From: Brevundimonas sp.
GTDB taxonomy: Bacteria > Pseudomonadota > Alphaproteobacteria > Caulobacterales > Caulobacteraceae
Reading direction: 5' to 3'
Length of the DNA: 64,000 bases
Assembly: GCF_018608325.1 (NCBI RefSeq)
Contig: NZ_JABAZW010000013.1
Span: 8,009 to 72,008, forward strand
Shown: piece by piece, positions 1 to 34,249 of the stretch
Numbering within the stretch: position 1 is the stretch's first letter
How the letters are laid out: each line of letters starts with the position of its first letter
Position numbers and translations under genes: made by a program
The notes under the pieces: generated by a model
Told to the model about the DNA's origin: nothing
Seen by the model: the letters and a program-made list of their open reading frames with translations, nothing else
Databases searched by the model: none

Positions 1-113
1 TGGCGCTGAAGATCGAGCGCTGGAGCAATGGCGCCGTCCCCGCCGCATCCATCTGTGGTGAACTTCGCAAGATCGCGAACGACCCGTCACCCCCATCCGC
101 CGAGGCCGCATAG
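1..113 (+). CDS. 3' end of an upstream phage early gene (partial)
   Basis: The frame is open from the window edge to TAG at 111-113 (...ELRKIANDPSPPSAEAA*). It has the same -EAA tail style as downstream early genes. Confidence 0.3.
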   Translation, partial: ALKIERWSNGAVPAASICGELRKIANDPSPPSAEAA

Positions 114-172
114 ATGGCCCAGGCTCCGAAATCACGCCGCGTACAGTCTGGCGTGACCGTCTCGCCGGGAGG

Positions 173-367
173 ATGGCCCCTCCCCCTCCACCGATCCTCT
201 CGGCGGGACACCCTCACATGCTGACCCCGGATGAACTCGACGAGCTTCGGGAGGTGTTGCGCCAGGAACTGGCCCGCGCCCTTCACCCGAGCGTCCTGCG
301 CCCGGCCACACCCCTTCCCGCCAACGACAGGGCTCCGCTCACCCCAGAACCGCCCGAGGCCGCCTAA
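173..367 (+). CDS. Hypothetical early protein (start uncertain: 173 or 218)
   Basis: From the ORF track. The ATG at 173 abuts GGGAGG with no spacer, so the ATG at 218 (MLTPDELDELREVLRQ...) is equally plausible. It ends ...PEPPEAA 3 nt before the next ATG. Confidence 0.35.
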   Translation: MAPPPPPILSAGHPHMLTPDELDELREVLRQELARALHPSVLRPATPLPANDRAPLTPEPPEAA

Positions 368-370
368 ACA

Positions 371-898
371 ATGACTGACACCCGGACAATTCCGCTCACG
401 AAGGGCTACGAGGTTGTCGTTGATGCCGCTGACTACGGCTGCCTGGCAACCTACCGCTGGCAAGCAAAGGTGGTAAGGCGCACTCCAGCCTCTAAGCCGC
501 ATATCTGCGCCGTTCGATCCACCGGCGGCGGTGGCCGCAAACGCATGATCTACATGCACCGTGAAATTATCGGCGCAAAAGCGGGTGAGATCGTCGATCA
601 CATAAACCGCAATCCTCTCGATAATCGACGAGTGAATCTTCGGATTGCGACGCGGTCTGGCAATGCGGTGAACCGTGAGTACGTCAATCCGACAGGATTC
701 CGGGGCGTCCATCCGGTCAAGCGGCGCTTCCGCGCGTCGTTGTCGGTGGACGGCTTCGTTCACCGGACCGCCATTTACGACACCCCTGAGGACGCCGCTC
801 GTGAATACGACCGGCTCGCCATGGCGCACCACGGCGCGTTCGCCGTCGTCAACTTTCCAACGCAACCCACAGAACCTCCGCCTCTGAACGCTGCCTGA
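371..898 (+). CDS. HNH endonuclease with C-terminal AP2-type DNA-binding domain
   Basis: HNH motif IVDHINRNPLDNRRVNLRIAT followed by an AP2-like segment GFRGVH..FRASLSVDG..YDTPEDAAREYDRLAMAHHGAFAVVNFP. Confidence 0.8.
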   Translation: MTDTRTIPLTKGYEVVVDAADYGCLATYRWQAKVVRRTPASKPHICAVRSTGGGGRKRMIYMHREIIGAKAGEIVDHINRNPLDNRRVNLRIATRSGNAVNREYVNPTGFRGVHPVKRRFRASLSVDGFVHRTAIYDTPEDAAREYDRLAMAHHGAFAVVNFPTQPTEPPPLNAA

Positions 899-957
899 GT
901 AGGCCCGAACAGACGAGCGGTCAGCAAATAACGAAACCAGATCAAACGGAGAACACT

Positions 958-1392
958 GTGAGCGCCGCGTTCGTCAAATCCCTGACCCGACAGATTGAAG
1001 ATCGTATGGGCGGAAGCGCCAAGGCCGCTGCAGCTGCTGGCGTCTCTCAGGGCCGCTGGTCCAGCTACGTCAACGAAGGCAACGACGCCTACGCCACCAC
1101 GACCATCCCGCTCCACCGCTTCATGAAGGTAGCGGGACCGGACGAGAAGTCGGCCCTGCTGAGTGTCTGGAGCCACGACTTCGCCACGCCCGGCGATTGC
1201 CTGAACACCGAGGCCAGCCAAGTCACCGAGGCGTCGGCGGAACTGCAGCGCGTCGTGCGTGAGGCCAAGGCCCGAGCTGGCGACGGCCCGATCTCACAGA
1301 TCGATCAGGCCCGCATCCTCAAGCTGGTCCTGATCGTCCACGCCGAAGCTGACGACGTGCGCTCCACCCTGATCAACAAAGGGGCTGCGTGA
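958..1392 (+). CDS. Putative phage regulatory protein (CII/CP76-like HTH; tentative)
   Basis: GTG start downstream of ACGGAGA. The N-terminal HTH-like stretch AAAAAGVSQGRWSSYVNEG supports the call. The stop overlaps the next start. Confidence 0.5.
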   Translation: MSAAFVKSLTRQIEDRMGGSAKAAAAAGVSQGRWSSYVNEGNDAYATTTIPLHRFMKVAGPDEKSALLSVWSHDFATPGDCLNTEASQVTEASAELQRVVREAKARAGDGPISQIDQARILKLVLIVHAEADDVRSTLINKGAA

Positions 1393-1820
1393 TGGGCGCG
1401 CTATGCCAGACGCCCACCAATCAGGGGCAGCACGTCTTTCGCATAGGCGACGACCGGGCCGTAAAATCGGTAGCTGGTCACCGGCTGCTGGCTGATGGGC
1501 TGGTCTCACTAACTCTTCCGCCAAGGCCGCTGACCGAGTCGGAAGCTAAGCGGCTGGCTTGGGGAATCCTGGCAGACCTTGCGCCGGATGAAGTGGCCCC
1601 TATTCCGCAGGTGGTGAACTACCGCGAAAGCGGTCGCTGTCAGGTCCTAACCCATCTGGCCGAAGGTCCCCGCCGCATACCCCAGTTGGCGGACTTGCTG
1701 AACTGGAACAGGCGCACCGTCGAGAGGCGGCTGGCAGAACTGATAGGCGACGGTCGCGTCAAGCGTGTCGCCCACTCACCCTACGACATCACTTTCGAAA
1801 TCGACCGGGAGGCTGCGTGA
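1389..1820 (+). CDS. Winged-helix DNA-binding protein (hypothetical)
   Basis: GTG 1389 or ATG 1392 within a GCTGCGTGATG junction that overlaps the upstream stop. Contains the wHTH-like segment RIPQLADLLNWNRRTVERRLAELIGDGRVKRV. Confidence 0.55.
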   Translation: MMGALCQTPTNQGQHVFRIGDDRAVKSVAGHRLLADGLVSLTLPPRPLTESEAKRLAWGILADLAPDEVAPIPQVVNYRESGRCQVLTHLAEGPRRIPQLADLLNWNRRTVERRLAELIGDGRVKRVAHSPYDITFEIDREAA

Positions 1821-2032
1821 TGTTCGGCTTCCGCTCCCGCAACCGCGTCACTCGCGCCAAGGCCGCTTTCGAGGCGGCTCACACCGAGCACAAAGCCGCC
1901 CAGCGCCGCCAAGACACCCGCCGAATGTCAATCGCAGCGGCAAACCTTCGGGCTGCGAACACTGAGTTGATGGCCGCCGAAGCCGCCGCTCATCCCAAGC
2001 CCGCACACCTTCCAACCCCACACGGAGCCTGA
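1817..2032 (+). CDS. Hypothetical early protein
   Basis: Same GCTGCGTGATG coupling junction as the previous gene. It is a 71-aa basic, Ala-rich protein with no domain recognised. Confidence 0.45.
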   Translation: MMFGFRSRNRVTRAKAAFEAAHTEHKAAQRRQDTRRMSIAAANLRAANTELMAAEAAAHPKPAHLPTPHGA

Positions 2033-2034
2033 AC

Positions 2035-2310
2035 ATGGCTGACGACGCTAATTTCGATGCTGGACCTGACGTCCTGAACTCTGCCGCCCAAGGTCGCCTG
2101 CGCAGCATCATCGAGCGTGTCGAGCGCTTGGAAGAGGATAAGGCCGCCGTCCAGAACGACATCAAGGAGGTCTTCGCCGAAGCCAAGGGTGAAGGCTACG
2201 ACGTGAAGGTGCTGCGCAAAGTCATCCGCATCCGCAAGCAGGACAAGGCCAAGCGTCAGGAAGAGGAATCCATCACTGACCTGTACCTCTCCGCCCTTGG
2301 GGAGATCTGA
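2035..2310 (+). CDS. GapR-like nucleoid-associated protein (DUF2312 family), phage-encoded
   Basis: 91 aa, colinear with Caulobacter GapR as I remember it: [66 protein letters not shown]. Confidence 0.85.
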
Positions 2311-2312
2311 CC

Positions 2313-2756
2313 ATGGCTGGATCAGTCAACAAGGTCATTCTGGTCGGCAATCTGGGCCGCGATCCGGAAATCCGCTCCATGCCGAACGGCGACCGCATCG
2401 CCAACCTGTCGATTGCGACCTCGGAAACCTGGCGCGACAAGTCCTCGGGCGAGCGCAAGGAAAAGACCGAATGGCACCGTGTCGTCGTGTTCAACGACAA
2501 CATCGTCAAGGTCGTCGAGAACTATGTGAAGAAGGGCTCGACCGTCTATATCGAGGGCGCGCTTCAGACCCGCAAATGGACCGATCAACAGGGCGTCGAG
2601 AAGTACTCGACCGAGATCGTGGTCAGCCGCTTCAAGGGCGAACTGACGATGCTGGGCGGCAAGCCTGAGGGCGCCGATCGCGCCGACGACACCCAATCTC
2701 ACCAATCGACCAGTCGTCAGGACAGCTATGACCTGAACGACGATATTCCATTCTGA
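2313..2756 (+). CDS. ssb: Single-stranded DNA-binding protein
   Basis: OB-fold SSB signature [30 protein letters not shown] and an acidic C-terminal tip DDIPF. Confidence 0.95.
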
Positions 2757-2766
2757 GGGCTCGCTC

Positions 2767-2931
2767 ATGGCCCGTCCTCAGACCCACACCGTTCAGCAGG
2801 CCTACATCGGGCGTGACGGCAAGCCCCGCTGCTTCGTCAAAGGCCACACGCTCCCCCTGTTCACGGACAAAATCCTGAACGAGGGCGACGCCGTCGTGAT
2901 CCGCGGTAATCGCGCGGAGCGTCCAGCATGA
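2767..2931 (+). CDS. Small hypothetical protein (54 aa, below the ORF-track cutoff)
   Basis: ATG at 2767, in frame to TGA at 2929-2931, which overlaps the next ATG (ATGA). It fills the only gap in the operon. Product: MARPQTHTVQQAYIGRDGKPRCFVKGHTLPLFTDKILNEGDAVVIRGNRAERPA. Confidence 0.4.
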   Translation: MARPQTHTVQQAYIGRDGKPRCFVKGHTLPLFTDKILNEGDAVVIRGNRAERPA

Positions 2932-3125
2932 CCCGCGCCACCAACAGCGGACACCCCGGCGCTGGCCAGTACGCCACCAGCCGTCGCGGCGGCGTGTCCA
3001 TGAACGACATCTGGCAGGCACAAGAAGCCATCGGGCAGCGCGCTACGCCGTCGATGATCGCCCGCTACCTGGGCCGCTGCGAGATCGACGTGCGCGTCCT
3101 GATGACGCCGGAGGCCGCAACGTGA
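2928..3125 (+). CDS. Hypothetical early protein
   Basis: From the ORF track. It is coupled at both ends (ATGA at 2928 and GTGA at 3122). No domain recognised. Confidence 0.45.
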   Translation: MTRATNSGHPGAGQYATSRRGGVSMNDIWQAQEAIGQRATPSMIARYLGRCEIDVRVLMTPEAAT

Positions 3126-3481
3126 GTGCCGGTCCTGAAGCCCGCCTGCAATTTGCCGTCGCCCGCTTCCTTGGCGTCGCTTGCCCAGACCTTCTGTGGT
3201 CGCACTTCCCGGCTGGGGAAGACCGCAATGCTATCGTGGGCCGCAAGCTGAAGGACATGGGCCTCAAACGGGGCTGGCCTGACATCATCCTATGCCTGCC
3301 GGGCGGTGTTTTGGGCGCCATCGAACTGAAAGCCCCCACTGGTCGCCTGTCGCCGGATCAAATCGCCTTCCGCGAAGCCCTGATCGCCGCTGGTGGTCAG
3401 TTCGCCCTGTGTCGGTCACTGGACGACGTAGAGGCCTGCCTTGCCGCCTGGAACGTCCCGCTACGAGCGAGGGCGCAATGA
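3122..3481 (+). CDS. VRR-NUC domain nuclease
   Basis: Motif GWPDIILCLPGGVLGAIELKAPTGRLSPDQIAF (PD-(D/E)xK VRR-NUC type). GTG start overlaps the upstream stop. Confidence 0.8.
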   Translation: MSAGPEARLQFAVARFLGVACPDLLWSHFPAGEDRNAIVGRKLKDMGLKRGWPDIILCLPGGVLGAIELKAPTGRLSPDQIAFREALIAAGGQFALCRSLDDVEACLAAWNVPLRARAQ

Positions 3482-3882
3482 GGGTCACTGGTCAGGAAGT
3501 CATAGCCTATGTGGCGGAATTCTACGATCTGAGCGTTGGCGACCTGAAGGGAACCAGTCGGGCAAGGCGTCTGGCTCGGCCACGCCAGATCGCTTGCTAT
3601 GTGATGCGGTGCGTCTGCCCGCATCTGAGCTTTCCAGCCATAGGACGCCTTCTTGGGGGGCGCGACCACACGACTGTGCTTCACGCAGTGAGCAAGGTGT
3701 CGGAGTTGATGGCTGACGCCCACGGATTTGAATCCGATGTCGCCGACATCCTGGCCCACTTTTATCGGCCAACGTCAGCGGACCTATACCTGCGCGCACG
3801 GATCATTGACGCTGAGCGTCACCTTGAGGCGCTGAAGGCGCAGGCTGCTGGATCACCCGCCCTGTTCGAGGCCGCAGCATGA
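3478..3882 (+). CDS. DnaA C-terminal (domain IV)-like DNA-binding protein
   Basis: The ATG at 3478 overlaps the upstream stop (ATGA). Contains RPRQIACYVMRCVCPHLSFPAIGRLLGGRDHTTVLHAVSKV, which matches the DnaA domain IV HTH. The ORF-track start at 3292 overlaps the VRR-NUC gene and is not used. Confidence 0.8.
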   Translation: MRVTGQEVIAYVAEFYDLSVGDLKGTSRARRLARPRQIACYVMRCVCPHLSFPAIGRLLGGRDHTTVLHAVSKVSELMADAHGFESDVADILAHFYRPTSADLYLRARIIDAERHLEALKAQAAGSPALFEAAA

Positions 3883-4637
3883 GCGCCATCGCTTACTTGC
3901 AGCGACTTCTCGACGCCGGACTAGCCCTGGACGTCGCCATGATCGCTGCGCGTGAGCATGAGGCAGTGATGGCTGAATCCGGCCCACGCCGGTCAAAGGG
4001 AGCGCTACGCCAAGCTCGATACGAAGAGCGAAAGCGTCAGAAAGCGTCAGAAAGCGTCAGAAATGACGCTTCTGACGATACTCCTTCCCTCCCTTCTTCC
4101 CCCCACACCCCCCAACAACCCACCCATCCACGGGGAGATATATCTACCCCGCGCGAGAAGGCCGTTTCGAAGGCTGACCACGCCAAGGCCTTCGTCGAGT
4201 TCTGGACTGCCTACCCCCGGAAAGTCGGCAAGGACGCGGCGGCCAAGGCGTTCACCAAGGCGCTGGCGCGGGCAGACGGTCCAGACCCGATTTCAACGAT
4301 CCTCGACGGCCTGCGCAGAGCCCTCCCCGGCTGGGACGATCCGGAATTCATCCCCCACCCGACCACCTGGCTGAACCGAGGCAGCTGGAACGACGACGCC
4401 CCCATACCCCGCCGAGATCACCATGACCGCCCTGCAAACGATCACCGCCCCCGCCCTTCCAACGCCGCGCCTTCCCGTGCCGAGCGTGGTCAATCAGCCG
4501 CTCTTGCAGTGCTTGCTCGCCGGGGGGCTCTACCGAGACAAGATCAAGGCTGGAGTGCTTTCGACGAACCACCTTCCGGACCTGCGCCAGCTGGTGGCGG
4601 AGCTGGAGCCTTCGGTTCGCCCCGCCACGCTGCCTGA
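3879..4637 (+). CDS. Putative replication initiation/organiser protein (contains an iteron cluster)
   Basis: Carries a segment common in phage replication proteins: FVEFWTAYPRKVGKDAAAKAF..HPTTWLNRGSWNDD. Iterons lie in the linker-coding part. The last ~70 codons are low-complexity and overlap the next gene. Confidence 0.6.
   Translation: MSAIAYLQRLLDAGLALDVAMIAAREHEAVMAESGPRRSKGALRQARYEERKRQKASESVRNDASDDTPSLPSSPHTPQQPTHPRGDISTPREKAVSKADHAKAFVEFWTAYPRKVGKDAAAKAFTKALARADGPDPISTILDGLRRALPGWDDPEFIPHPTTWLNRGSWNDDAPIPRRDHHDRPANDHRPRPSNAAPSRAERGQSAALAVLARRGALPRQDQGWSAFDEPPSGPAPAGGGAGAFGSPRHAA
4031..4077. repeat. Iteron-like cluster: 3 exact tandem 10-mers AAAGCGTCAG plus one inverted partial copy; candidate phage origin
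   Basis: AAAGCGTCAG occurs at 4031, 4041 and 4051. ACGCTTCTGACG at 4066-4077 is the inverted partial copy. It is followed by a ~50-nt C/T-only tract (4081-4131) and the palindrome AGATATATCT (4136-4145). Confidence 0.6.
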
Positions 4638-4932
4638 GGCCGCAGCAGTTCTTGACCGGCTGTTTGCCCACTACTTGCGGCCAGACCTGCCGAACCACAT
4701 CGAGGAGAACCGCCTCGACGACTGGTACGACGACCTGGAGGGCATCCCGCTGGACATCCTGCAGGCGGCTGCGCGGGACTGGCGCCGGAGCGAGGCCAAG
4801 TACGCCCCGACGCCCGGGCAGTTCCTCGAAAAGACCAAGCGCTACACCGACCCTCGGACCTACGCCTACAACATCGGACGCATGGTGATTGAGGCTTTGG
4901 AACAGATCGAAACCCAGAAGGCCGCAGCATGA
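4423..4932 (+). CDS. Hypothetical early protein
   Basis: From the ORF track. The composition looks protein-like (..LLQCLLAGGLYRDKIKAG..DDWYDDLEGIPLDILQAAARDWRRSEAKYAPTPGQFLEK..). The stop overlaps the next ATG in an AGGCCGCAGCATGAGC junction. Confidence 0.55.
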   Translation: MTALQTITAPALPTPRLPVPSVVNQPLLQCLLAGGLYRDKIKAGVLSTNHLPDLRQLVAELEPSVRPATLPEAAAVLDRLFAHYLRPDLPNHIEENRLDDWYDDLEGIPLDILQAAARDWRRSEAKYAPTPGQFLEKTKRYTDPRTYAYNIGRMVIEALEQIETQKAAA

Positions 4933-5573
4933 GCAAAGCCCGCATAAAGAACGGCAAGCCCAAGATCCGCTCCAAGGGCGGCCGCCCACGCAAGGAAGGC
5001 GCACGCTATCCCTCAGGAGAGCTTCGCCCCGCTGGTCCGAACCCCGAGGTCATCGTCCGCCGCAAGGCCCTATGCGGAGACATCACCATGGCGACGAACC
5101 CCATCGACGTGATGCTGGCCAATCGCTGGATCACGGAGGACCAGCACCGCACCGCCGCGCGCTATCGTCAGGACCATCGATCGGCAGCCCTGTGCGGTCC
5201 GACCGTACCGACCCAGCGCGACCTTTCAGCCCCAGAAGGCGTCGACACCCGCGACCAGTCTTTCGCCACCATGCCCGACAAGGACATCGCCGCCGTATGG
5301 GATAGCGCCATGAGCCGCACGCCGCCTGCCGCGAATGACCAGCACGCCGGTCAGGCCCGCGCGATGGACCGCTACCGTGAGGCCAACCGTATCCTGACCG
5401 TGGCCCAGCGCAACGAGGTCAACGACGTAGTGCTACTCGACAGTTGGCCCCAATGGGTTCTCCAGCGCCGCGCCGGGAACTTCACGTCGTCATGGGAGAG
5501 AAAGCGCGAGCTGTTGATCGACGGCCTGGACTTGATCCAGGAGATCTATGGCCCACGGAGGAAGGCGGCATGA
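4929..5573 (+). CDS. Hypothetical protein, last gene of the early operon (basic N-terminus)
   Basis: From the ORF track, with a coupled start. No domain recognised. Its position fits a late-gene regulator, but nothing else supports that role. Confidence 0.6.
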   Translation: MSKARIKNGKPKIRSKGGRPRKEGARYPSGELRPAGPNPEVIVRRKALCGDITMATNPIDVMLANRWITEDQHRTAARYRQDHRSAALCGPTVPTQRDLSAPEGVDTRDQSFATMPDKDIAAVWDSAMSRTPPAANDQHAGQARAMDRYREANRILTVAQRNEVNDVVLLDSWPQWVLQRRAGNFTSSWERKRELLIDGLDLIQEIYGPRRKAA

Positions 5574-5626
5574 GCAAGGATCTGCGCCCGAGACGCTCCC
5601 CTTGCTCGACCCAGGTCGCCCCTTGA

Positions 5627-5866
5627 TCAAGCCAACTTCTCCAGCGAAGCGTCATACCTCTCACGAGCCACTGCGAGCGTAGCGCGGGCCTGTGTTCTGG
5701 ATGGCTCGTCCAGACTCTGGCGGAAGCCTTCATGAGCGGCGCACAGAGCAGCTAAAGCGCAGTCCCACTCGACAATATCCGGGTCATTGAAGTCGATCAT
5801 CTGCCCGATCCTTCCCTCACATTCTGAGTAGGAACGGCCCAGACTGATAATCCGACCTGCGGCCAA
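5627..5866 (-). CDS. Small hypothetical protein downstream of the XRE gene (alternative start 5800)
   Basis: From the ORF track. The internal ATG at 5800 is preceded by GGGAAGGA and would give a 57-aa product, MIDFNDPDIVEWDCALAALCAAHEGF... Confidence 0.35.
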   Translation of the reverse strand: MAAGRIISLGRSYSECEGRIGQMIDFNDPDIVEWDCALAALCAAHEGFRQSLDEPSRTQARATLAVARERYDASLEKLA

Positions 5867-5890
5867 ACTTCGCGGCAGACCGAAGCGTGC

Positions 5891-6238
5891 CTATGAAGGA
5901 TGCTCCTGCGCAGCCAATGCCTCCACGAGATCGGTAATCGCCTCGCGCTGACTGGCTGGAAGATCACCCCACGCCCTGAGCAACCGCTCAGCGCCAATGA
6001 CCGTGGTCTCTTCGGTGCCGTAAAGCTCTCCAATGCTGCACCGTAGCACCTTGGCTAGAGCAGGCATTTTGTCGGAGGGCACCCGGTTCTTGCCTACAAG
6101 GTATTTCTGCACTTGCTGGAATGAGACCCGCAGGGCGTCGCCAAGCTGGGCCTGGCTCAAACCAAGCTCAGCTCGACGACTGTTTATATTCTCCGCAATT
6201 CGAGTCGTGACTTCCTTATCTTCCGCCATCTCGGCCAT
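5891..6238 (-). CDS. XRE-family HTH transcriptional regulator (repressor-like)
   Basis: HTH_3 signature RIAENINSRRAELGLSQAQLGDALRVSFQQVQKYLVGKNRVPSDKMPALAKVLRCSIGELY. A GGGAG Shine-Dalgarno (SD) lies 6 nt upstream of the ATG. Confidence 0.85.
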   Translation of the reverse strand: MAEMAEDKEVTTRIAENINSRRAELGLSQAQLGDALRVSFQQVQKYLVGKNRVPSDKMPALAKVLRCSIGELYGTEETTVIGAERLLRAWGDLPASQREAITDLVEALAAQEHPS

Positions 6239-6623
6239 GCCGCACTCCCACTGAAACGCTTGATCACAAGGGCGCCCGACTGAAAGCTAACGCAACGGCA
6301 CCCTCAGCGAAATGACGTCTGGTTATTCGAGGCGTTGAAACCCTCCAGATGCGTCAAGGTGATGTGCCGATTGGCTGCAGAAGCCGCGCCAACCTTCTCA
6401 GTCGGAACTATGTAGTCCAGTCACGTAGTCGCATCCGCCTGAGTCTGGCGTAGCACGCCCTCAACAAGCAGCAAGGTTCGCAGACGTAGCAATAATTTAC
6501 AGTTCAGGACGATAATTATTCGCAATCAAGCTTTACTGTATCGCAAAACTCTCTAACGGTTTCGCCGCGCAACTTTAGGGGGCGTGGGGTGAGTGCCGAA
6601 CCTTCATTGGCTGCGGCGCTAGG

Positions 6624-6677
6624 GGCGGCCCGTCTTCCCTCCAAACATGAGGCCGGGCCGCTCTTCCTCTTTTTTCT
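6624..6677 (+). terminator. Terminator-like hairpin with a long loop, in a non-coding region
   Basis: The stem GCGGCCCG (6625-6632) pairs with CGGGCCGC (6654-6661) and can be extended by G-U pairs. It is followed by the pyrimidine/T run CTTCCTCTTTTTTC. Confidence 0.35.
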
Positions 6678-6707
6678 GACCGAGTGAGTGCGGCATTCTT
6701 ACTCAGC

Positions 6708-6732
6708 GAAATACGGCGAGACCCCGTATTTC
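6708..6732. promoter_or_regulatory. Perfect 9-bp inverted repeat GAAATACGG-N7-CCGTATTTC (operator or leader hairpin candidate)
   Basis: Read directly from the sequence, ~70 nt upstream of the ATG at 6804. Confidence 0.3.
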
Positions 6733-6803
6733 TACGTAATCAGAATTCAGAACCAGTTAACCGAGCAAGCGCAGCCTCAACGTGCCAGCCTATGGAGGGA
6801 AAG

Positions 6804-7109
6804 ATGGCGCGTAAGATCGGCTTTGACCAAGCTGTGAAGCTGCTAGGACAAGCGAGACTTCTTCCAGAGGAAGAAGCCCCAGACACTGACGATCTTGAGA
6901 AGATCGTATTGCGCCAAACGCCCATGCACTGGGAACAGGCGGCCACCATTCTCGACGAAGTTGCGTACAATATGCAGGCAGGCGCCAGGTGCGACGGCTT
7001 GGACATCGCTGCTGTAAACCGCATCGGGTTCTGGCTACGTCAGCTTGACGTTGATGAGCGCATCAAGACCGCGACCTCTGTTCACGCCGCACGCAACAAA
7101 GCTGCTTGA
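6804..7109 (+). CDS. Hypothetical acidic protein (101 aa)
   Basis: The ATG at 6804 is preceded by GGAGGGA (6795-6801). The ORF-track start at 6684 lacks an SD. An intrinsic terminator follows the gene. Confidence 0.55.
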   Translation: MARKIGFDQAVKLLGQARLLPEEEAPDTDDLEKIVLRQTPMHWEQAATILDEVAYNMQAGARCDGLDIAAVNRIGFWLRQLDVDERIKTATSVHAARNKAA

Positions 7110-7146
7110 CGGCGAATCCGAACCAGCCAATAATTCGGCAAATGAA

Positions 7147-7178
7147 AGCCTCGGAGTTTTGCGCTCCGGGGCTTTTTC
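7147..7178 (+). terminator. Intrinsic terminator
   Basis: AGCCTCGGAG-TTTTGCG-CTCCGGGGCT followed by a T run. Confidence 0.7.
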
Positions 7179-7301
7179 GTGCCCGACGCACACGCCAACC
7201 TGCGACATTCCGTCAATCGGGCAACCATCTCCCTGCGTTGACTCCAGCGTGTAGACAAGACGATCCTCAGTTGCCCCAATCAGAGGGCTCAGGAGGATGA
7301 T

Positions 7302-7598
7302 TTGTTCAACGCCAAGCGAATTGCCGTAGGTTTGTCTTCTCTATCCATTCTTGCTGCTGCCGTTGCAGTAGCAGCTACCGCGCCCGCTCAACCCGCAGCG
7401 GCTGCCGGTCAGAGCTCCTTCCGGATCTACGAGTTCACCTACTACTCGGATGCAAATCATTCGACCGTCGTTGGATATGCCCGGCAGGCTTGCTCGCCAA
7501 ATGATCCCGGCTTCCAACAGTGGGGAACGGTGACGCAGTACGTCGTGTCCAATCCAATAGGCTACTGCAGCCCTGATGATGGCGGTGTGATCCACTAA
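7302..7598 (+). CDS. Small secreted 2-Cys protein, paralogue family member 1
   Basis: TTG start 5 nt after AGGAGGA. The signal peptide is MFNAKRIAVGLSSLSILAAAVAVAATAPA. The mature part shares the FTYYSDA..VG..C..G..T..C pattern with 7662-7904 and 32850-33107. Confidence 0.6.
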   Translation: MFNAKRIAVGLSSLSILAAAVAVAATAPAQPAAAAGQSSFRIYEFTYYSDANHSTVVGYARQACSPNDPGFQQWGTVTQYVVSNPIGYCSPDDGGVIH

Positions 7599-7621
7599 GC
7601 TTCGGCTGACGAATAGCTGGA

Positions 7622-7650
7622 AGGCCCCAGGCGTCGCCCGGGGCCTTTTT
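7622..7650 (+). terminator. Intrinsic terminator
   Basis: AGGCCCC..GGGGCCT stem followed by TTTTT. Confidence 0.7.
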
Positions 7651-7661
7651 CGTGAACCAGC

Positions 7662-7904
7662 CTAGCAGGTAAAGGGCTGGAACGTTTGATGAAGCGTCCT
7701 CTGGCCATATGGCCCGCGAACGGTCCCATCACATTCTACAATGCGATAACCGGTCTCGTTGGTGTGCTCGTAGGTTGAATACCAACGGTAGACACCAGGC
7801 GTTCCGGGGGGCGGATAGTTTGGATCAAACTGCGCATTGGCCACGGTCGTCGGCACAACAAAAGCGGCGGCAGTCAACGCTGCTATAAAGAGCTTCTTGA
7901 ACAT
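7662..7904 (-). CDS. Small secreted 2-Cys protein, paralogue family member 2
   Basis: The ATG at 7904 is preceded by GGAGGAAAGA. The signal peptide is MFKKLFIAALTAAAFVVPTTVANA. The mature part YRWYSTYEHTNETGYRIVECDGTVRGPYGQRT..FTC aligns with members 1 and 3. Confidence 0.6.
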   Translation of the reverse strand: MFKKLFIAALTAAAFVVPTTVANAQFDPNYPPPGTPGVYRWYSTYEHTNETGYRIVECDGTVRGPYGQRTLHQTFQPFTC

Positions 7905-8100
7905 TCTTTCCTCCACAATCCCCGCACGTGCGGAAACCAACCCAATCATCAATCGGTGATTGTGGCAGTTAAAAACCTTGTCATTGCGGTTGACTGGGAG
8001 CCCGCTGACCATGTTCGGAACTACGGGAATGGCTGGATCACCAAGGTCACCCTATCAACCACAGGTTTGCGCGGAGATTTTACCAAGCCTTAACTCCCGG

Positions 8101-8144
8101 CAACTGAAGCAAGAATTCTTTTCTAGAAGCGGGGGCTTCAGTTG
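8101..8144. promoter_or_regulatory. 10-bp perfect inverted repeat CAACTGAAGC/GCTTCAGTTG enclosing two 8-bp palindromes
   Basis: The arms are at 8101-8110 and 8135-8144. The enclosed palindromes are AGAATTCT (8112-8119) and TTCTAGAA (8121-8128). It lies between divergent genes and overlaps the first possible start of the 8142 ORF. Confidence 0.3.
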
Positions 8145-8579
8145 CAGATCATCAGCGGCTTTTCAGAGGTGTTGCACCGTGAACTGATGGTTTCAGGACA
8201 CGAGCACGTCTCCAGCACCAACGAGATTGCCTTCAGCGTGGGCGGCGTCAGCGCCAAGATGCGAACCCGTGAACCCATCATCTTGGCCACCGGAGATCGG
8301 ATTGCCGTTTGCGGAGAGTTCGGCAAGGGCGGCGTGTTCAACGCCTACGCTTTGATGAACTACACACGCGGCGTCTCCGCCAGCTGCGCCGCCAGCGCAA
8401 ACGAGATACTTGGCGTAATCTTCATCATCTTTGGTGCCGCGTTCGCAATCGTGGGTGTCGGCCTTCTGTTCGTGGCACTCGGCATCTGGCTGCTGAGAGA
8501 AAACAAAAAAATGAAGGCGGCCGAGACAATGCTGCACGATCCACATAGTCGAGATGCTAGCGCGGGGTCGGCGGCGTAG
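8142..8579 (+). CDS. Hypothetical C-terminally membrane-anchored protein (start uncertain: 8142 TTG, 8169 GTG or 8187 ATG)
   Basis: From the ORF track. A soluble N-terminal ~75 aa is followed by the hydrophobic helix ILGVIFIIFGAAFAIVGVGLLFVALGIWLL and a charged tail. Confidence 0.5.
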   Translation: MQIISGFSEVLHRELMVSGHEHVSSTNEIAFSVGGVSAKMRTREPIILATGDRIAVCGEFGKGGVFNAYALMNYTRGVSASCAASANEILGVIFIIFGAAFAIVGVGLLFVALGIWLLRENKKMKAAETMLHDPHSRDASAGSAA

Positions 8580-8771
8580 CATTGCGGTTCTCACCGCCTT
8601 GGAAGATTATCAATCGCAGGTCGGACGGGAGAGCGTCGCCCGAGGTAACCGCCCCGCCGATCTGAGGCTATCCTGCGTCGCCGTCCCGCTACAGCGGACT
8701 TGAACGGGACCGGCCGGACGTGACCGGCCGGCAGGGTCGAAAGGTCCGTCCCGTGAGAATACGGAGGGCCG

Positions 8772-9170
8772 ATGCCCGCTCTCTCCAACCCCAAGCATGA
8801 GCGGTTCGCTCAGGCCTTGGCCAAGGGCAAAAGCCAAGCCGAGGCCTACGCTGACGCTGGCTACAAGCCCAGCGAGCCGAACGCGTCTCGCCTGACAAGT
8901 AATGACAAGGTGCAGGCGCGCCTCTCAGAGCTTCAGGAACGCGCCGCAACTCGCACCGAGATCACGGTCGCCAGTATCACTGAACGCCTGCTCGCCATCG
9001 CCACCAAGGCTGAGAAAAGCCGGGAGGCTCCGATGCTTCAGGCCGCACGAGCCAGCCTCATGGACGCTGCGAAGCTGAATGGCCTCGTCGTCGACAAGTC
9101 ATCGATCGACGCCCGGGTTACAACGCCCAAGACGCTGAACGACTTCTATGGCGGCGAGAGCGACGCTTAA
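8772..9170 (+). CDS. Terminase small subunit
   Basis: N-terminal HTH typical of Terminase_2-type TerS (NPKHERFAQALAKGKSQAEAYADAGYKPS..NASRL). It sits immediately upstream of, and overlaps, the large terminase gene. Confidence 0.8.
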   Translation: MPALSNPKHERFAQALAKGKSQAEAYADAGYKPSEPNASRLTSNDKVQARLSELQERAATRTEITVASITERLLAIATKAEKSREAPMLQAARASLMDAAKLNGLVVDKSSIDARVTTPKTLNDFYGGESDA

Positions 9171-10539
9171 CCCGGCGCTTCGGGATTTCTGGCGCACACC
9201 CGCCCGCAACAGGGTTCTGAAGGGCGGCCGGTCTTCATCGAAGAGCTGGGACGCAGCAGGGTTCGCGATCTTCCTCGCGGCGAACTATCGGGTTCGGTTC
9301 CTCTGCACCCGCCAGTTCCAGAACAAGATCGAGGAGAGCGTCTACACGCTCCTCAAGATCCAGATCGAACGCTTTGGCCTGAAGGCCGAGTTCACGATCC
9401 TGAACAACCGGATCGTCCACAACACGACCGGGTCAGAGTTCATCTTCTACGGCCTGTGGCGCCACATCGACGAGATCAAGTCGCTCGAGAACATCGACGT
9501 GTGCTGGATCGAAGAGGCCCACAACCTCACCAAGGCGCAGTGGGAAATCCTTGAGCCGACCGTTCGGAAAGACGGCTCGCAGTTCTGGATCATCTTCAAC
9601 CCACGCTTGGTGACGGACTTCGTTTATCGGCGCTTCGTCACGAACACGCCACCTGACACCGTCGTCAGGACGATCAACTACACCGACAACCCCTTCCTCT
9701 CGCCTACGATCCTGAAGGTGATCGAAGCCAAAAAGGCGGAGGACGAAGAAGAGTATCGCCACACCTACCTCGGCGAGCCTCGGGAAGACGACGACGCGGT
9801 CATCATCAAGCGCTCGTGGATCCAGGCAGCGATCAACGCGCGGAGTGTGCTTGGACTGCCTGCGTCGGGACGGCGCCGCATCGGTTTCGACGTTGCTGAC
9901 GGCGGCGATGACAAATGCGCCACGGTCGAGGCATGCGGGATCGAAGCTGTCCGGGTCGATGAATGGAAGGCCGGTGAGGACGAACTTCTCAAGTCGGCGT
10001 CTCGCGTTCACGTCCAGGCCGTCGAGAGCGGTGCCGAGATCGACTACGACAGCATCGGCGTCGGGGCCTTTGCAGGCGCCCATTTCGCCAGCCTGAATGA
10101 ACAGAAGGCTGCGCAGGTCGCCTATCACAAGTTCAACGCCTCGGGCGCGATCCTGAACCCCAAGGCTCGGATCGACCCAAAGGACCCGAAGAGCCCGCTC
10201 AATGCGGACTTCTACCTCAACCTCAAGGCTCAGGCGTGGTGGGAAGTGGCGGCCCGGTTCCGCAACACCTTCAACGCGGTCAACCGGGGCATGCAGTTCG
10301 ACGAGGGCGAGTTGATCTCGATCTCTCCCGACTGCGATCACCTCGACACCCTGATCGATGAGCTTTCGACGCCACGGCGCGACTACGACGGGAGCGGCAA
10401 GGTGAAGGTTGAAAGCAAAAAGGACCTGGCCAAGCGGGACATTCCGTCGCCGAACAAGGCTGATGCGTTCGTGATGGCGTTTGCCCAGCGCGAGGCTGGC
10501 TCCACCGTCGCCATGTTCCTGAAGAGCAGGCACCGCTGA
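9148..10539 (+). CDS. Terminase large subunit (PBSX-like family)
   Basis: Walker A-like VLKGGRSSSKS, then FLCTRQFQNKIEESVY..IDVCWIEEAHNL..FWIIFNP, and a C-terminal nuclease region. Confidence 0.95.
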   Translation: MAARATLNPALRDFWRTPARNRVLKGGRSSSKSWDAAGFAIFLAANYRVRFLCTRQFQNKIEESVYTLLKIQIERFGLKAEFTILNNRIVHNTTGSEFIFYGLWRHIDEIKSLENIDVCWIEEAHNLTKAQWEILEPTVRKDGSQFWIIFNPRLVTDFVYRRFVTNTPPDTVVRTINYTDNPFLSPTILKVIEAKKAEDEEEYRHTYLGEPREDDDAVIIKRSWIQAAINARSVLGLPASGRRRIGFDVADGGDDKCATVEACGIEAVRVDEWKAGEDELLKSASRVHVQAVESGAEIDYDSIGVGAFAGAHFASLNEQKAAQVAYHKFNASGAILNPKARIDPKDPKSPLNADFYLNLKAQAWWEVAARFRNTFNAVNRGMQFDEGELISISPDCDHLDTLIDELSTPRRDYDGSGKVKVESKKDLAKRDIPSPNKADAFVMAFAQREAGSTVAMFLKSRHR

Positions 10540-31447: not shown

Positions 31448-31610
31448 CAACGTCATCCTGGGTCAAAACCGGATGACGGCCCGCTGAGCCGTTGGGGGGC
31501 CGGAGCGGGCCGTCGTGTCGAGCGGTTTGGGTCGCGGCGACACGCGAGAGTTGCTGAATGCGCCACCTTTGGCAACTCCAACTTTTAATCAGACAATCTG
31601 GAGACTGAAC

Positions 31611-32132
31611 ATGAGCTTCCGCTTTTCCAAGCGGTCGATGGACCGTGCGCGGTCGGTCGATCCGCGCCTGATGGCCTTGGCAACAGCGGCGTTGGCCCGA
31701 TCCAGCGTCGATTTCGGACTGACCGAGGAACAGTCGCGCACCTGGGCCGAGCAGGCCGAGAAGGTGCGGCGCGGCGTCTCGAAGACCATGAACAGCAAGC
31801 ACGTTATCAAGGCGCCGAAGAAGGTTTCCGAAGGCGTCGATCTGGTGCCGTTCGTCGATGGCGTCTTCACATGGGGCGACAATCAGTGGCGGGTCAAAAC
31901 CAAGGCTGGCCCGACGATAGAGCCGTTCTACGAGATCGCCGCCGCCATGCGCGAAGCCGCCATCGCCGCCAACCTGCGGCTGACATGGGGAGGCGTTTGG
32001 GACCGTTGCCTGAATGACCTTCCCGCTGGCCCGGCCGCGATGAAGGCCGCGGTCGAGGCCTACAAGGCGCGCCGCAAGGCGGCCGGGGGGGCGGCCCTGC
32101 TGGACGGACCGCATTTCGAGTTGGTGAAATGA
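31611..32132 (+). CDS. Endolysin, peptidase M15 (VanY/L-Ala-D-Glu peptidase-like)
   Basis: Zn-ligand pattern SKH..(x)..GVDLVP and DGPHFEL. The ATG at 31611 is used because the ORF-track start at 31515 has no SD. Confidence 0.8.
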   Translation: MSFRFSKRSMDRARSVDPRLMALATAALARSSVDFGLTEEQSRTWAEQAEKVRRGVSKTMNSKHVIKAPKKVSEGVDLVPFVDGVFTWGDNQWRVKTKAGPTIEPFYEIAAAMREAAIAANLRLTWGGVWDRCLNDLPAGPAAMKAAVEAYKARRKAAGGAALLDGPHFELVK

Positions 32133-32482
32133 TCCAGTCCGTCATTCGCACCCTCACCCCGACCGCTTGGCTGATCGTCGGCGTCCTCGCCGCCTTCCTG
32201 CTGTTTGGCGCCTTCTGCTCATACAGGGGCGGACAGACCGAAAGAGATCGTCAGGCCGCCTCTGCCGCCAAGATCGAGGCGAAGGCCTCCACGGCGCGGG
32301 AAACAGCCGCCAGCGAGCGCCACAACGACAACACCACCATCAACACCCGCGAGAAGGAGCTTTCCAATGCGGTCCAGTCGCTTCCTGATGCTGCCCCTAG
32401 CCCTCGCCGCGTCCGGCTCGCTTGTGAGCGGCTGCGTCAGCAAGGGTCTCGCCTTCCCGCCGAGTGTGGACCTGCGGGTTGA
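32129..32482 (+). CDS. i-spanin (Rz-like)
   Basis: N-terminal TM segment (WLIVGVLAAFLLFGAFC) followed by a charged coiled-coil. Its start overlaps the endolysin stop. Confidence 0.65.
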   Translation: MIQSVIRTLTPTAWLIVGVLAAFLLFGAFCSYRGGQTERDRQAASAAKIEAKASTARETAASERHNDNTTINTREKELSNAVQSLPDAAPSPRRVRLACERLRQQGSRLPAECGPAG

Positions 32483-32669
32483 GCCCAAGCCGGTCCTGGC
32501 GCCTGATGCGATTTATTCGGAAGCCGCGCTCGACGCCTACGACATCGCCATCGAGGCGCGAGGAGATCGGCTGGCGGCCCAGGTCGGGCGGCTATGCCGG
32601 TTCTTCGACACCATGGGTATGAAGGGTCTAGACTGTCCGCCGCCAGAGCCCCGACCGAAGCAGGGCTAG
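32367..32669 (+). CDS. o-spanin (Rz1-like lipoprotein), overlapping the i-spanin 3' end in another frame
   Basis: The ATG at 32367 lies 7 nt after GAAGGAG. The signal and lipobox read MRSSRFLMLPLALAASGSLVSG-C. Confidence 0.7.
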   Translation: MRSSRFLMLPLALAASGSLVSGCVSKGLAFPPSVDLRVEPKPVLAPDAIYSEAALDAYDIAIEARGDRLAAQVGRLCRFFDTMGMKGLDCPPPEPRPKQG

Positions 32670-32849
32670 GTCCATGGAAATCCCCACTGACCGTTTTCTC
32701 TGTTCAGCGAAAATGGTCCAGCGTCGAGCCATCAGGCTCCGCTACGGGTCCGTCATCCGAAGGGGCGGCGGGCTTTGGCGCGCTGAGAGAAACTTGCAAT
32801 CCCACGGATACTATGACGCAATCCAAGAGGGAATCCATCCCACTTGGAG

Positions 32850-33107
32850 ATGCCGGTGAAGAGCTTGCTCAAAACGATCAGTATTGGCGCGATTGCAGTG
32901 ACGGCAGCGGCCTTATCTGGACCAGCCCTTGCGTTGCCAGCAGATTACGTATGGTTTACCTACTATAGTGACGCCACATATACAGTGGAAGTCGGAGAGA
33001 AACACATTCTGTGCTCCGGGAGAACAGTTCGACTTGGTGAAACAACGCCATATTATCAGATATACACAACGCCTTGCCCGAACCCTCCGCACACCGGACC
33101 GTGGTAG
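32850..33107 (+). CDS. Small secreted 2-Cys protein, paralogue family member 3 (start 32844 TTG, 32850 ATG or 32856 GTG)
   Basis: The signal peptide is ..KSLLKTISIGAIAVTAAALSGPALA. The mature part VWFTYYSDATYTVEVGEKHILCSGRTVRLGETT..TTPC aligns with 7302-7598 and 7662-7904. Confidence 0.55.
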   Translation: MPVKSLLKTISIGAIAVTAAALSGPALALPADYVWFTYYSDATYTVEVGEKHILCSGRTVRLGETTPYYQIYTTPCPNPPHTGPW

Positions 33108-33259
33108 GGTACAAATAACTATAAGCACCTGCGATCAGCCCCCCATCCGAAAGGGTGGCGGGCTTTCCGCCCTTACGAACAATCACTGATTGTTCTAGCC
33201 ACAATCTTATGTATCCATGCGCATAGGGAGGCCTGTCTCCCGCTTGGAGAGTTGTCGCG

Positions 33260-33502
33260 ATGAAAAAGATATATGCGGGCGTTGTTTTGGCGGCAGCCAT
33301 CATGGGCGTTGCGACGTCATCCATCGCCGGGCCAGACTGCGATGCGCCTTCGATAGGTAATAAATGCGACGAGGCTTTCAACGATGAGGTGCTGATTTGC
33401 GGCTTCCTCACCGAACATGGAAGCGAAATCGCGCAGGGCTGTATCGAGACAGCCAGGGCCAAACATAACGCATGCATGAAGGCCAACAGTTGTTCGGGCT
33501 GA
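33260..33502 (+). CDS. Small secreted cysteine-rich protein
   Basis: SD GGAGA lies 9 nt upstream. The signal peptide is MKKIYAGVVLAAAIMGVATSSIA. The ~57-aa mature part holds six Cys. Confidence 0.55.
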   Translation: MKKIYAGVVLAAAIMGVATSSIAGPDCDAPSIGNKCDEAFNDEVLICGFLTEHGSEIAQGCIETARAKHNACMKANSCSG

Positions 33503-33558
33503 TCAAGCTGAACTGACAGTTCGGGGCCGCTCTGTTCATCAGGGCGGCCTTTCGTCAT

Positions 33559-33828
33559 TCAGGCCGTCATCAAATCCCGATAAGGCTCCCCGCGCTCCCC
33601 CGCCTCAGCCCGCGTCAGCACCTTCGTCTCATTGTTCGCCCCGACCGCGACCTTGATGTCCCGGATGCGGACGCCGTCTGCGATGGTCTTTGGACGCCCT
33701 GGCTGCATAGCGCTCAGCCGCTCAATCCATTCGTCAGTCTGGACCGTGATCAGGCCGGGTTTCTGGCTGTCATCGCTGGCCGCTGCCTGCATGGCGTCGA
33801 GGGCGGCGTTTAGTTCGTCGGGGCTCAT
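33559..33828 (-). CDS. Hypothetical protein
   Basis: From the ORF track. Acidic N-terminus. No domain recognised. Confidence 0.5.
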   Translation of the reverse strand: MSPDELNAALDAMQAAASDDSQKPGLITVQTDEWIERLSAMQPGRPKTIADGVRIRDIKVAVGANNETKVLTRAEAGERGEPYRDLMTA

Positions 33829-33976
33829 TCAACGACGTGTAGGCCGAGTCGCCGGGAGGGATTGTAGGGAACCAATCTCTCAAGCGACGGTTCTCCCCTC
33901 ATGATCGGGCTTGCCCTTCCTGGTCAGCGTAGCAGTCTGAGCCGCCGCTTTGCACCGAGAGCGGCGGCTTTCTGTT

Positions 33977-34249
33977 TCAGGCGTTAGCCGTAAACCACTG
34001 TCGGAAGGCGTCGGCATCAAACGACGACCCGAAGTGGAAGTTGTCAGCCATTACGTAGAACCATCCGGCGCTTGGCCTCGCCTCCAGCCACTCGATCATC
34101 TTGCCGCGCGCGACGGGTCCGCGATCCGGCAGGCTTAAGGTCGTGATCTTGTCGCGGGTGCGTGCCCACTCGGTCTGCGTCAGTTTTTGCATCGGCGGCT
34201 TAGGAGGGCGGTTCGCCGGTCCTGTCGATGCGCCGCGGCGGGTTCTCAA
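33977..34249 (-). CDS. Hypothetical protein (start uncertain: TTG 34249 or ATG 34192)
   Basis: From the ORF track. Neither candidate start has a clear SD. Confidence 0.4.
   Translation of the reverse strand: MRTRRGASTGPANRPPKPPMQKLTQTEWARTRDKITTLSLPDRGPVARGKMIEWLEARPSAGWFYVMADNFHFGSSFDADAFRQWFTANA

Follow-up and report, generated by a model that had tools for sequence, protein, structure and literature searches.

Organisation of the island

The window analysed here is the whole 64 kb stretch of Brevundimonas prophage and host DNA from contig NZ_JABAZW010000013.1, and the element in question is an island of mixed-strand genes at positions 5574-8771, which lies between the early operon of the prophage (end at 5573) and its packaging genes (start at 8772). 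Both flanks, as drawn in an earlier note made from the letters of this DNA, were confirmed by profile matches, and all the open reading frames (ORFs) among the six elements listed there were found to be present. The island comprises gene A (5627-5800, minus strand), gene B (5891-6238, minus strand) coding for an XRE-type repressor, a long intergenic region, gene C (6804-7109, plus strand), the convergent genes D (7302-7598, plus strand) and E (7662-7904, minus strand), and gene F (8142-8579, plus strand). It is A/T-richer than its flanks, as had been judged by eye: at 57.0% GC it falls below every other 3.2-kb window of the 64 kb (mean 63.3%, sd 2.1), with values of 63.4% to the left of the island and 63.2% in 8772-32000. 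The earlier proposal that the island constitutes one module was not borne out, as it splits into three units which are found separately elsewhere, namely unit 1 (genes A, B and C), unit 2 (genes D and E) and unit 3 (gene F).

Three separately mobile units

Unit 1, a block at 5629-7178 that carries A, the XRE gene, the intergenic region, C and a terminator, shares 73-94% nucleotide identity with the loci L153, L157 and L162. Its edges are exact: the left one coincides with A's stop codon, the right one with the final U of the terminator. In these loci the block comes after genes of integrative and conjugative elements (ICE) and type IV secretion systems (T4SS); the copy in L153 follows VirB8/9/10, TraF, SLT and AlpA genes and a HEPN gene, and thus stands at the end of an ICE. 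A smaller sub-unit, 6485-7180, consisting of 318 nt upstream of C, C itself and the terminator, is found without the XRE gene at about 75% identity in L158/L160, L149-152/L197 (B. nasdae) and L163, in contexts that include the neighbourhood of an ICE, chromosomal islands and the other cargo slot of a sibling prophage; in L193, where an integrase lies three genes away, the sub-unit is accompanied by a divergent XRE gene (65% identity). The sibling prophage is L158, which resembles the present one in its tail genes (89.5% nucleotide identity), SRAP gene (89%) and integrase gene (70%). Its leader-C unit occupies a cargo slot between the lysis end and the SRAP and integrase genes; since this is a different slot, the unit moves between slots of related prophages. 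The pair of genes D and E recurs in L199, in the same slot but without A, B, C and F, and D is found alone in L201.

The leader-C unit of L158 (7684-8853) is directly convergent with a short gene for a BLUF protein (a blue-light sensor), and a BLUF gene also lies near C in L163 (761-2574), which may reflect a functional link or a coincidence.

Variability of the slot among related prophages

A search with the terminase large subunit (TerL) recovered 148 related loci, the closest having 92-94% TerL identity and including a prophage of Brevundimonas bullata (L001). By tblastn, none of the 148 loci encodes any of the six island proteins. DNA homology between the closest relatives and the window covers the structural genes and some of the early region, and next to the island it resumes only at 9105, inside the terminase small subunit gene (terS). 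The slot in these relatives holds different genes, mostly on the minus strand and of mixed strand overall. Thus, L001 carries a gene for a 224-aa zinc-ribbon and DUF4145 protein (9045-9719, minus strand; Pfam E-value 1e-9; PADLOC PD-T7-4, E-value 2e-7) and a Cas2-like ORF of 93 aa (8539-8820, minus strand), L070 a gene for a secreted 145-aa protein, L073 two small ORFs, and L110 an insert of 5.9 kb with a PIN_10-like pair, a LuxR-type membrane protein gene and an HNH gene. PD-T7-4 is known to be RAZR, an RNase that acts by abortive infection (PMC13017515). Comparison with a phage record collection gave a match only to a fragment of terS.

The place beside the packaging genes had been regarded as a cargo hotspot, and alignment of related prophages had been suggested as a check; the alignment agrees with that view, the slot being hypervariable, with unrelated cargo in the siblings and none of the island genes conserved there, and the three units are independently mobile. 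The island genes likewise behave as the autonomous moron-like units that they were taken for, with absence from the same position in close relatives (0/148), deviating base composition (57.0% against 63.3% GC) and ends at their own terminators.

The slot begins where the last early gene ends and reaches about codon 112 of terS. The terS gene (8772-9170) is itself a mosaic, with codons 1-109 being 89% identical to terS of the phage L199, whose TerL is unrelated, and only about the last 19 codons matching terS of the closest TerL relatives; from this two-part ancestry it follows that the variable region extends into terS. The homology with L199 begins exactly at 8772, and the GC-rich (66%) spacer immediately before terS (8580-8771), with a hairpin at 8710-8731, looks like phage backbone rather than cargo. 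A 36-nt motif at 8005-8040, CTGACCATGTNCGGNNCTACGGNAATGGCTGGATCA, is shared at 88% with L071 (1696-1731) and L073 (5711-5743); it is located upstream of terS in these three sibling prophages, the slot sequences of which are otherwise unrelated, and could represent a late regulatory site or a recombination boundary.

The conserved leader of gene C

The gap between the XRE gene and C measures 565 nt (554-572 nt in relatives) and had been described as a structured non-coding region of about 560 nt. This holds for its right 320 nt (6485-6803), which are conserved and structured, but not for the left part (6239-6484), where the XRE promoter presumably lies and where the sequence is poorly conserved and diverged in L162 and L193 (alignment A5). 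The leader of C, on the plus strand, has a left edge that is sharp at 6485 in several contexts lacking the XRE block of the window. It includes two TTTAC boxes (6493-6540), recognised by eye as possible promoter or operator elements, three predicted hairpins designated P1 (6563-6589), P2 (6592-6620) and P3 (6621-6665, with the invariant loop CCCUCCAAA), a variable linker (6666-6735) and a conserved proximal part (6736-6803) that contains the Shine-Dalgarno (SD) sequence GGAGG at 6794-6798.

Mean pairwise identity among seven divergent copies is 0.81 in the distal leader (6490-6665) and 0.86 in the proximal part (6736-6803), as compared with 0.86, 0.91 and 0.56 at the first, second and third codon positions of C, 0.52 in the 3' untranslated region (UTR) and 0.50 to the left of 6485. 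Purifying selection on the leader is as strong as on the amino-acid-changing codon positions. A coding role for the leader was considered and rejected, because the conserved core carries four different 1-nt insertions or deletions and no open frame is common to the copies.

RNAalifold, applied to eight distinct leader sequences, yielded a structure of 64 pairs in which 94% of the cells are paired, a share that drops to 40-47% if the partners are shifted by 1-3 columns. Compensatory changes occur in eight pairs, three of them in P3, and covariation is confined to P3 and three short helices (helices 2, 7 and 10). Nineteen pairs are long-range, joining 6593-6618 (GUGCCGAACCUUC..UGGCUGCGGCG) to 6783-6810 (UGCCAGCC..GGAGG..AUGGCGC), so that the predicted helices cover the SD sequence and the AUG of C. 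The five one-sided changes within them are all wobble-compatible, a pattern consistent with pairing of the leader to the SD sequence and AUG in the modelled structure, though not proof of it. The long-range fold is both the minimum free energy (MFE) and the centroid structure of the window sequence. When folded alone, the distal element forms the three hairpins, and since P2 uses the same bases as the long-range helix, the two are mutually exclusive. P3 was also considered as an obligatory terminator and rejected, as its U-run is present in the window-type copies and not conserved in L158, L149, L193 and L163.

A covariance model of the distal element matched only sequences adjoining C in the window and 34 selected loci; of the region upstream of C, L196 retains no more than the proximal 65 nt. 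Rfam 15 gave no match at gathering score in the whole window and none that was meaningful at E<=1 in 5400-8900. The leader motif CCTCCAAANNNNAGGCCRGGCCG gave 29 matches in viral and metagenome contigs, all by chance and without flanking homology. The leader is thus constrained, partly covarying and tied to one unannotated protein family, and, as far as the sequence comparisons go, it appears not to have been described before, being absent from Rfam.

Gene C and its protein family

Gene C encodes a protein of 101 aa, as noted earlier, although it is only mildly acidic (pI 5.3). The AlphaFold2 (AF2) model has four helices, predicted with confidence, and a predicted local distance difference test (pLDDT) score of 85.8. 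Ten close homologues of about 101 aa were found, all in Brevundimonas-type assemblies, and an exhaustive profile search brought in 48 remote relatives of 62-150 aa. The family is characterised by the motif E..L...P.....A...G.R.DG.D..A., of which the remote relatives share E32, L36, P40, A46, G60, R62, D64, D67 and A70; the G-x-R-x-D-G-x-D loop lies between helices 3 and 4. The C-terminal Ala-Ala is invariant in 11/11 close homologues, where the preceding 10 residues vary, and is not invariant in the remote relatives.

Profile and structure searches, which had been proposed as a check, led to no known fold or domain: C had no match in Pfam or NCBIfam, the profiles A3 and A4 had none in PDB, Pfam or NCBIfam, and Foldseek comparison of the model with PDB and BFVD returned nothing below an E-value of 0.28. 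The 48 remote relatives are all unnamed and without a match in Pfam, NCBIfam or PDB, and a scan of viral contigs with one of them (P0025) gave nothing. By analogy, the invariant Ala-Ala suggests a ClpXP-type degron and a short-lived C protein. F ends in Ala-Ala as C does, and so do most of the early proteins, ends that may or may not reflect ClpXP targeting of early phage proteins.

The XRE repressor and gene A

The minus-strand gene B encodes an XRE (Cro/CI-type) helix-turn-helix (HTH) protein of 115 aa with a C-terminal helical extension, a layout shared with RstR, DicA and CapH. The assignment made earlier was upheld by the Pfam family HTH_3 (E-value 4e-10, 40 bits against a cut-off of 23). 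The protein also matched NCBIfam RstR over positions 3-102 of 108 and DicA, PADLOC capH over positions 3-101 of 103, and the 434 repressor in PDB (E-value 1e-3). It thus resembles the 434 repressor, RstR of CTXphi, DicA and CapH in having an HTH_3 domain, a short C-terminal helical region and full-length profile matches; its scores against these subfamilies, however, are far below their curated cut-offs, and the partner protease CapP is lacking. We infer that it represses the divergent promoter region. It is unlikely to be the main repressor of the prophage, the left end of which is outside the window, as sibling prophages lack the XRE gene.

Gene A lies downstream of the XRE gene, with which it is predicted to be co-transcribed, and its stop codon forms the left edge of unit 1. 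The small ORF reported at 5627-5866 is present and co-directional with the XRE gene, but the start of the gene is most likely the ATG at 5800, preceded by a good SD sequence, GAGGGAAGGA, which would give a small helical protein of 57 aa in place of the 79 aa of the longest ORF. The gene is called as 57 aa in other contigs, and the L153 copy of the 79-aa ORF has a frame break between residues 16 and 17. With amino acid identities of 75-98% in L153, L157 and L162, the protein is conserved more strongly than its DNA, and A is for this reason considered to be a real gene. It had no match in Pfam, PHROG, PADLOC or NCBIfam.

Genes D, E and F

The genes D and E had been recognised as a convergent pair of secreted two-cysteine proteins, and the signal peptides, the cysteine pairs and the orientation were all corroborated. 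D (98 aa, Cys64 and Cys89) belongs to the Pfam family DUF6289 (PF19806; E-value 3e-7, 31 bits, above the cut-off of 27.3), so that the earlier statement that no domain apart from the HTH can be recognised in the island does not hold for D, whereas it stands for A, C and F. E (80 aa, Cys58 and Cys80, signal peptide ending …VANA/QF) is a divergent DUF6289-like protein, which shares the signal peptide and two-cysteine spacing and scores below the cut-off (E-value 0.03, 14.9 bits), as does its orthologue in L199 (80% identity; E-value 0.001, 19.7 bits); a BLASTP comparison of D with E gave an E-value of 0.014. A third gene of this kind (32844-33107, plus strand, 87 aa; E-value 5e-9, 36.7 bits) encodes, like D, the pattern YYSD...VG...C...G..T.Y...C behind a signal peptide. 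Judged by profile scores, the prophage holds two clear DUF6289 genes, which pass the gathering score, and the sub-threshold E. The third gene is situated in a second cargo slot (32776-33979), between the lysis end and the SRAP and integrase genes, along with an ORF for a secreted Cys-rich protein of 80 aa (33260-33502, plus strand).

Two close homologues of D (P0014 and P0015) are encoded just upstream of the terminase genes in other phages. The L199 copies of D (plus strand) and E (minus strand) are convergent in the same slot and are followed by four other genes, which replace F before TerS; the replication protein of L199 is 53% and its TerS 89% identical. The L201 copy of D stands immediately before a different TerS/TerL pair, beside a portal gene of 82% identity. 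DUF6289 genes are a recurrent cargo of these phages. Scans of viral contigs with D and E returned nothing, and no mention of DUF6289, a family without known function, was found in the literature searched.

Gene F encodes a 145-aa protein from a TTG start, and the GC content at its third codon positions (GC3, 0.73) supports coding. The C-terminal membrane anchor claimed earlier was reproduced in the single-sequence AF2 model (pLDDT 58) as one long transmembrane helix followed by a KK-rich tail ending in Ala-Ala; only the helix at residues 84-131, which covers the hydrophobic segment, is confident, and the N-terminal part is beta-rich with low confidence. F matched only itself among 5.8 billion proteins and had no relative among the fetched loci by phmmer and tblastn. 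No family match was obtained, no record turned up for the exact sequence, and the matches in PDB were no more than noise.

Terminators

Folding supported both the intrinsic terminators proposed earlier (7147-7178 and 7622-7650), with a strong hairpin and U-run at 7147-7178 and at 7619-7649. The hairpin at 7147-7178 (plus strand; -22.6 kcal/mol, z -3.7) recurs in all relatives of C and shows compensatory changes there; by fold and conservation it is the intrinsic terminator of C, and the homology of unit 1 ends after its U-run. The GC-rich hairpin at 7619-7649 is common to the convergent genes D and E (z -2.6 on the plus strand, -3.8 on the minus strand) and serves as a terminator for D, with its U-run on the plus strand, and possibly as a bidirectional terminator. 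A consensus terminator scan of 5000-9500 called no sites as against 4.2 expected in shuffled sequences; given the two clear terminators with hairpin and U-run, such a negative scan is untrustworthy in GC-rich sequence.

Flanking genes of the prophage

The region 1-5573 is one plus-strand early operon that codes for an HNH endonuclease (371-898), an HTH protein, a GapR-like protein (2035-2310; PF10073, E-value 4e-33), SSB (2313-2756), a VRR-NUC protein (3122-3481), an HTH protein of the DnaA_C type (3478-3882), a replication initiator (3879-4637), a helicase-loader-like protein and, as the last early gene product, a 214-aa protein (4929-5573). The GapR-like protein is a phage copy of a Caulobacter family of DNA-binding, nucleoid-associated proteins. 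The ORF of the replication initiator and the next ORF (4423-4932) overlap by about 215 nt in different frames, as do their counterparts in the B. bullata sibling L001 (6621-7385 and 7165-7740); the initiator ORF, which has a low GC3 (0.62), may in fact end further upstream, or else the overlap could be genuine.

One junction sequence, (G)AGGCNGC(AGC)-ATGA/GTGA, recurs at seven sites among the early genes (1389, 1817, 3122, 3478, 3879, 4929 and 5570); it gives translational coupling, and because of it most early proteins end in Ala-Ala. An 18-codon ORF (5570-5626, plus strand), which ends 2 nt before unit 1, starts at the junction GGAAGGCGGC-ATGA. Comparison of the junctions bore out the earlier observation that this is the type seen at the preceding early genes, and the ORF accordingly resembles the beginning of a further coupled gene. 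Neither its peptide nor its DNA had a relative, and it may be the remnant of a displaced gene.

To the right of the island, TerS (Terminase_2, phrog_51) starts at 8772 and TerL at 9148. The lysis genes are placed together at 31515-32669, with an endolysin (31515-32132; phrog_465, E-value 2e-35) followed by a lipoprotein-like ORF, a candidate spanin. The right end of the prophage is formed by the SRAP gene and the integrase gene (35568-36785), after which host genes follow.

Proposed interpretation and its alternatives

Taken together, the island is probably an accessory ('moron') slot of the prophage, filled by a mosaic of three independently acquired units, of which unit 1 would be gated at the RNA level and units 2 and 3 would have roles in the envelope; our confidence in this reading as a whole, including the functions proposed for the units, is moderate. 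Unit 1 would be a self-contained regulated gene, with the XRE repressor and A divergent from C. The mRNA leader of C (about 240-310 nt) is predicted to sequester the SD sequence and start codon by means of 6593-6618, with P2 as the mutually exclusive alternative, so that the leader RNA would control whether C is translated. C could then be a tightly held and short-lived effector or regulator that is released under a particular signal, its Ala-Ala end would lead to rapid proteolysis of the ClpXP type, and the strong terminator would close the unit. In unit 2, D and E would be small periplasmic disulfide proteins and in unit 3, F would be anchored in the inner membrane; judging from these locations, the two units may change the lysogen's envelope, most plausibly so as to bring about superinfection exclusion or surface conversion.

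Each part of the proposed arrangement has counterparts among known systems. Phage morons are autonomous accessory units in lambdoid phages such as HK97 and lambda, and the island resembles them in being absent at the same place in relatives, in base composition, in the possession of its own terminators and in its position between conserved modules; it differs from them in that unit 1 brings a repressor and a long structured leader, which goes beyond a promoter, a gene and a terminator. Defence hotspots of prophages and satellites, for example those of P2 and P4, are fixed slots with variable anti-phage cargo. The island is like these in its conserved flanks, in the unrelated cargo of each relative and in the zinc-finger and DUF4145 gene of L001 matching PD-T7-4, and unlike them in that its own genes match no known defence family. 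The leader is comparable to the SD-sequestering leaders of translational riboswitches, RNA thermometers and type I toxin 5' UTRs, as its distal segment is predicted to pair with the SD sequence and AUG and has a competing hairpin. It is distinguished from them by the lack of an Rfam match, by a regulated protein that belongs to a new soluble helical family and by the fact that no ligand, antisense or temperature logic was identified. T4 Sp, T4 Imm, P22 SieA and HK97 gp15 are phage envelope proteins for superinfection exclusion, with which the periplasmic D and E and the inner-membrane-anchored F can be compared only in their small size and location, no similarity of sequence or structure having been found.

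Several points weigh against this interpretation. A promoter scan returned one site as against 1.3 expected by chance and nothing convincing, and the candidate promoter boxes of the island were seen by eye only. The eight leader sequences all come from one genus and the structure was derived from these same sequences. The long-range pairs, which are 98-100% paired, are invariant on both sides and show no covariation; the z-score of the long-range fold is a modest -1.8, and the MFE structure of L158 prefers the local hairpin. The degron proposal draws on the general knowledge of ClpXP substrates in Caulobacter, and Ala-Ala ends are common in this phage through the GCNGC-ATGA junctions. No PADLOC, PHROG, Pfam or structural match assigns a function to A, C or F, and F, an orphan with a weak SD sequence and a TTG start, could be a young or decaying gene.

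Among the four alternatives considered, the strongest, though still unlikely, regards unit 1 as the regulatory switch of a mobile element, in which the XRE protein is an immunity-type repressor and C an antagonist or a regulator of induction or excision, silenced by the leader and by proteolysis. A repressor gene divergent from a regulated gene, as in CI/Cro regions, would fit such a switch, as would the resemblance of the XRE protein to RstR, DicA and the 434 repressor, the location of the L193 pair three genes from an integrase and that of the L153 copy after ICE transfer genes and an AlpA-type gene. However, C has no DNA-binding or known anti-repressor domain, C and its leader occur without an adjacent XRE gene in L158, L149 and L196, and siblings with about 93% identical TerL lack unit 1, which is therefore dispensable for the phage life cycle; the early operon with its upstream switch, moreover, lies to the left of the island, the switch being outside the window. 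That unit 1 is a toxin-antitoxin or addiction module, with C or A as a toxic component or a labile antidote and the layered control serving post-segregational killing or abortive infection, is improbable. Multi-layer repression and an Ala-Ala end are typical of tightly controlled or labile components, long SD-sequestering 5' UTRs are known from type I toxin mRNAs, and unit 1 rides on mobile elements. Yet neither A nor C contains a toxin or antitoxin domain, B and C diverge, whereas the genes of a type II system would share an operon, and C is a soluble helical protein of 101 aa, not a small hydrophobic peptide, with no antisense RNA identified.

The view that all six elements form one co-functional, lysogen-expressed system for defence, exclusion or conversion finds some support in their contiguity, their common low GC content (0.52-0.58) and the RAZR/PD-T7-4-like gene in the slot of a sibling, but the three units are apart in every other context examined, and strand switches and terminators separate them. 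PADLOC-DB v2 gave no defence model match for A, C, D, E and F, and for the XRE protein only weak matches of a generic HTH type (PDC-M69A, RmrA and capH). This explanation is accordingly given little credence. Very improbable is a role in lysis or late regulation, in which F would act as a holin or antiholin and D and E would assist lysis from the periplasm. The position before terS recalls the Q-S-R-Rz arrangement of lambda, and a small membrane protein (F) beside two exported ones (D and E) would suit such a role; however, the endolysin and the candidate spanin are encoded at 31.5-32.7 kb, at the other end of the structural genes, on which ground the island is not a lysis cassette. D and E, furthermore, have no lipobox, the island genes are not conserved in the siblings that share the structural genes, and no PHROG lysis family was matched by D, E or F.

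A more speculative extension of the accessory-slot interpretation, to which only a small probability can be attached, would see in 6485-7180 a new kind of mobile RNA-gated single-gene module that hops, within Brevundimonas, among the cargo slots of prophages, the edges of ICEs and chromosomal islands. Its leader would sense a metabolite, a second messenger or some cue derived from infection and would thereby unlock the translation of a short-lived effector, the family of which, a new one of small proteins, amounts to about 50 representative clusters.

Significance

Prophages commonly keep variable accessory genes in fixed slots, and in its outline the island is ordinary in this respect. With its precise limits and the RAZR-like defence gene known from a sibling, the slot makes this family of Brevundimonas prophages a convenient place to seek new defence or exclusion genes in an alphaproteobacterium related to Caulobacter. 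The leader-C unit is a candidate for a new cis-regulatory RNA, and the units of the island would provide a handle on the family of C and on DUF6289, both of which are without an assigned function.

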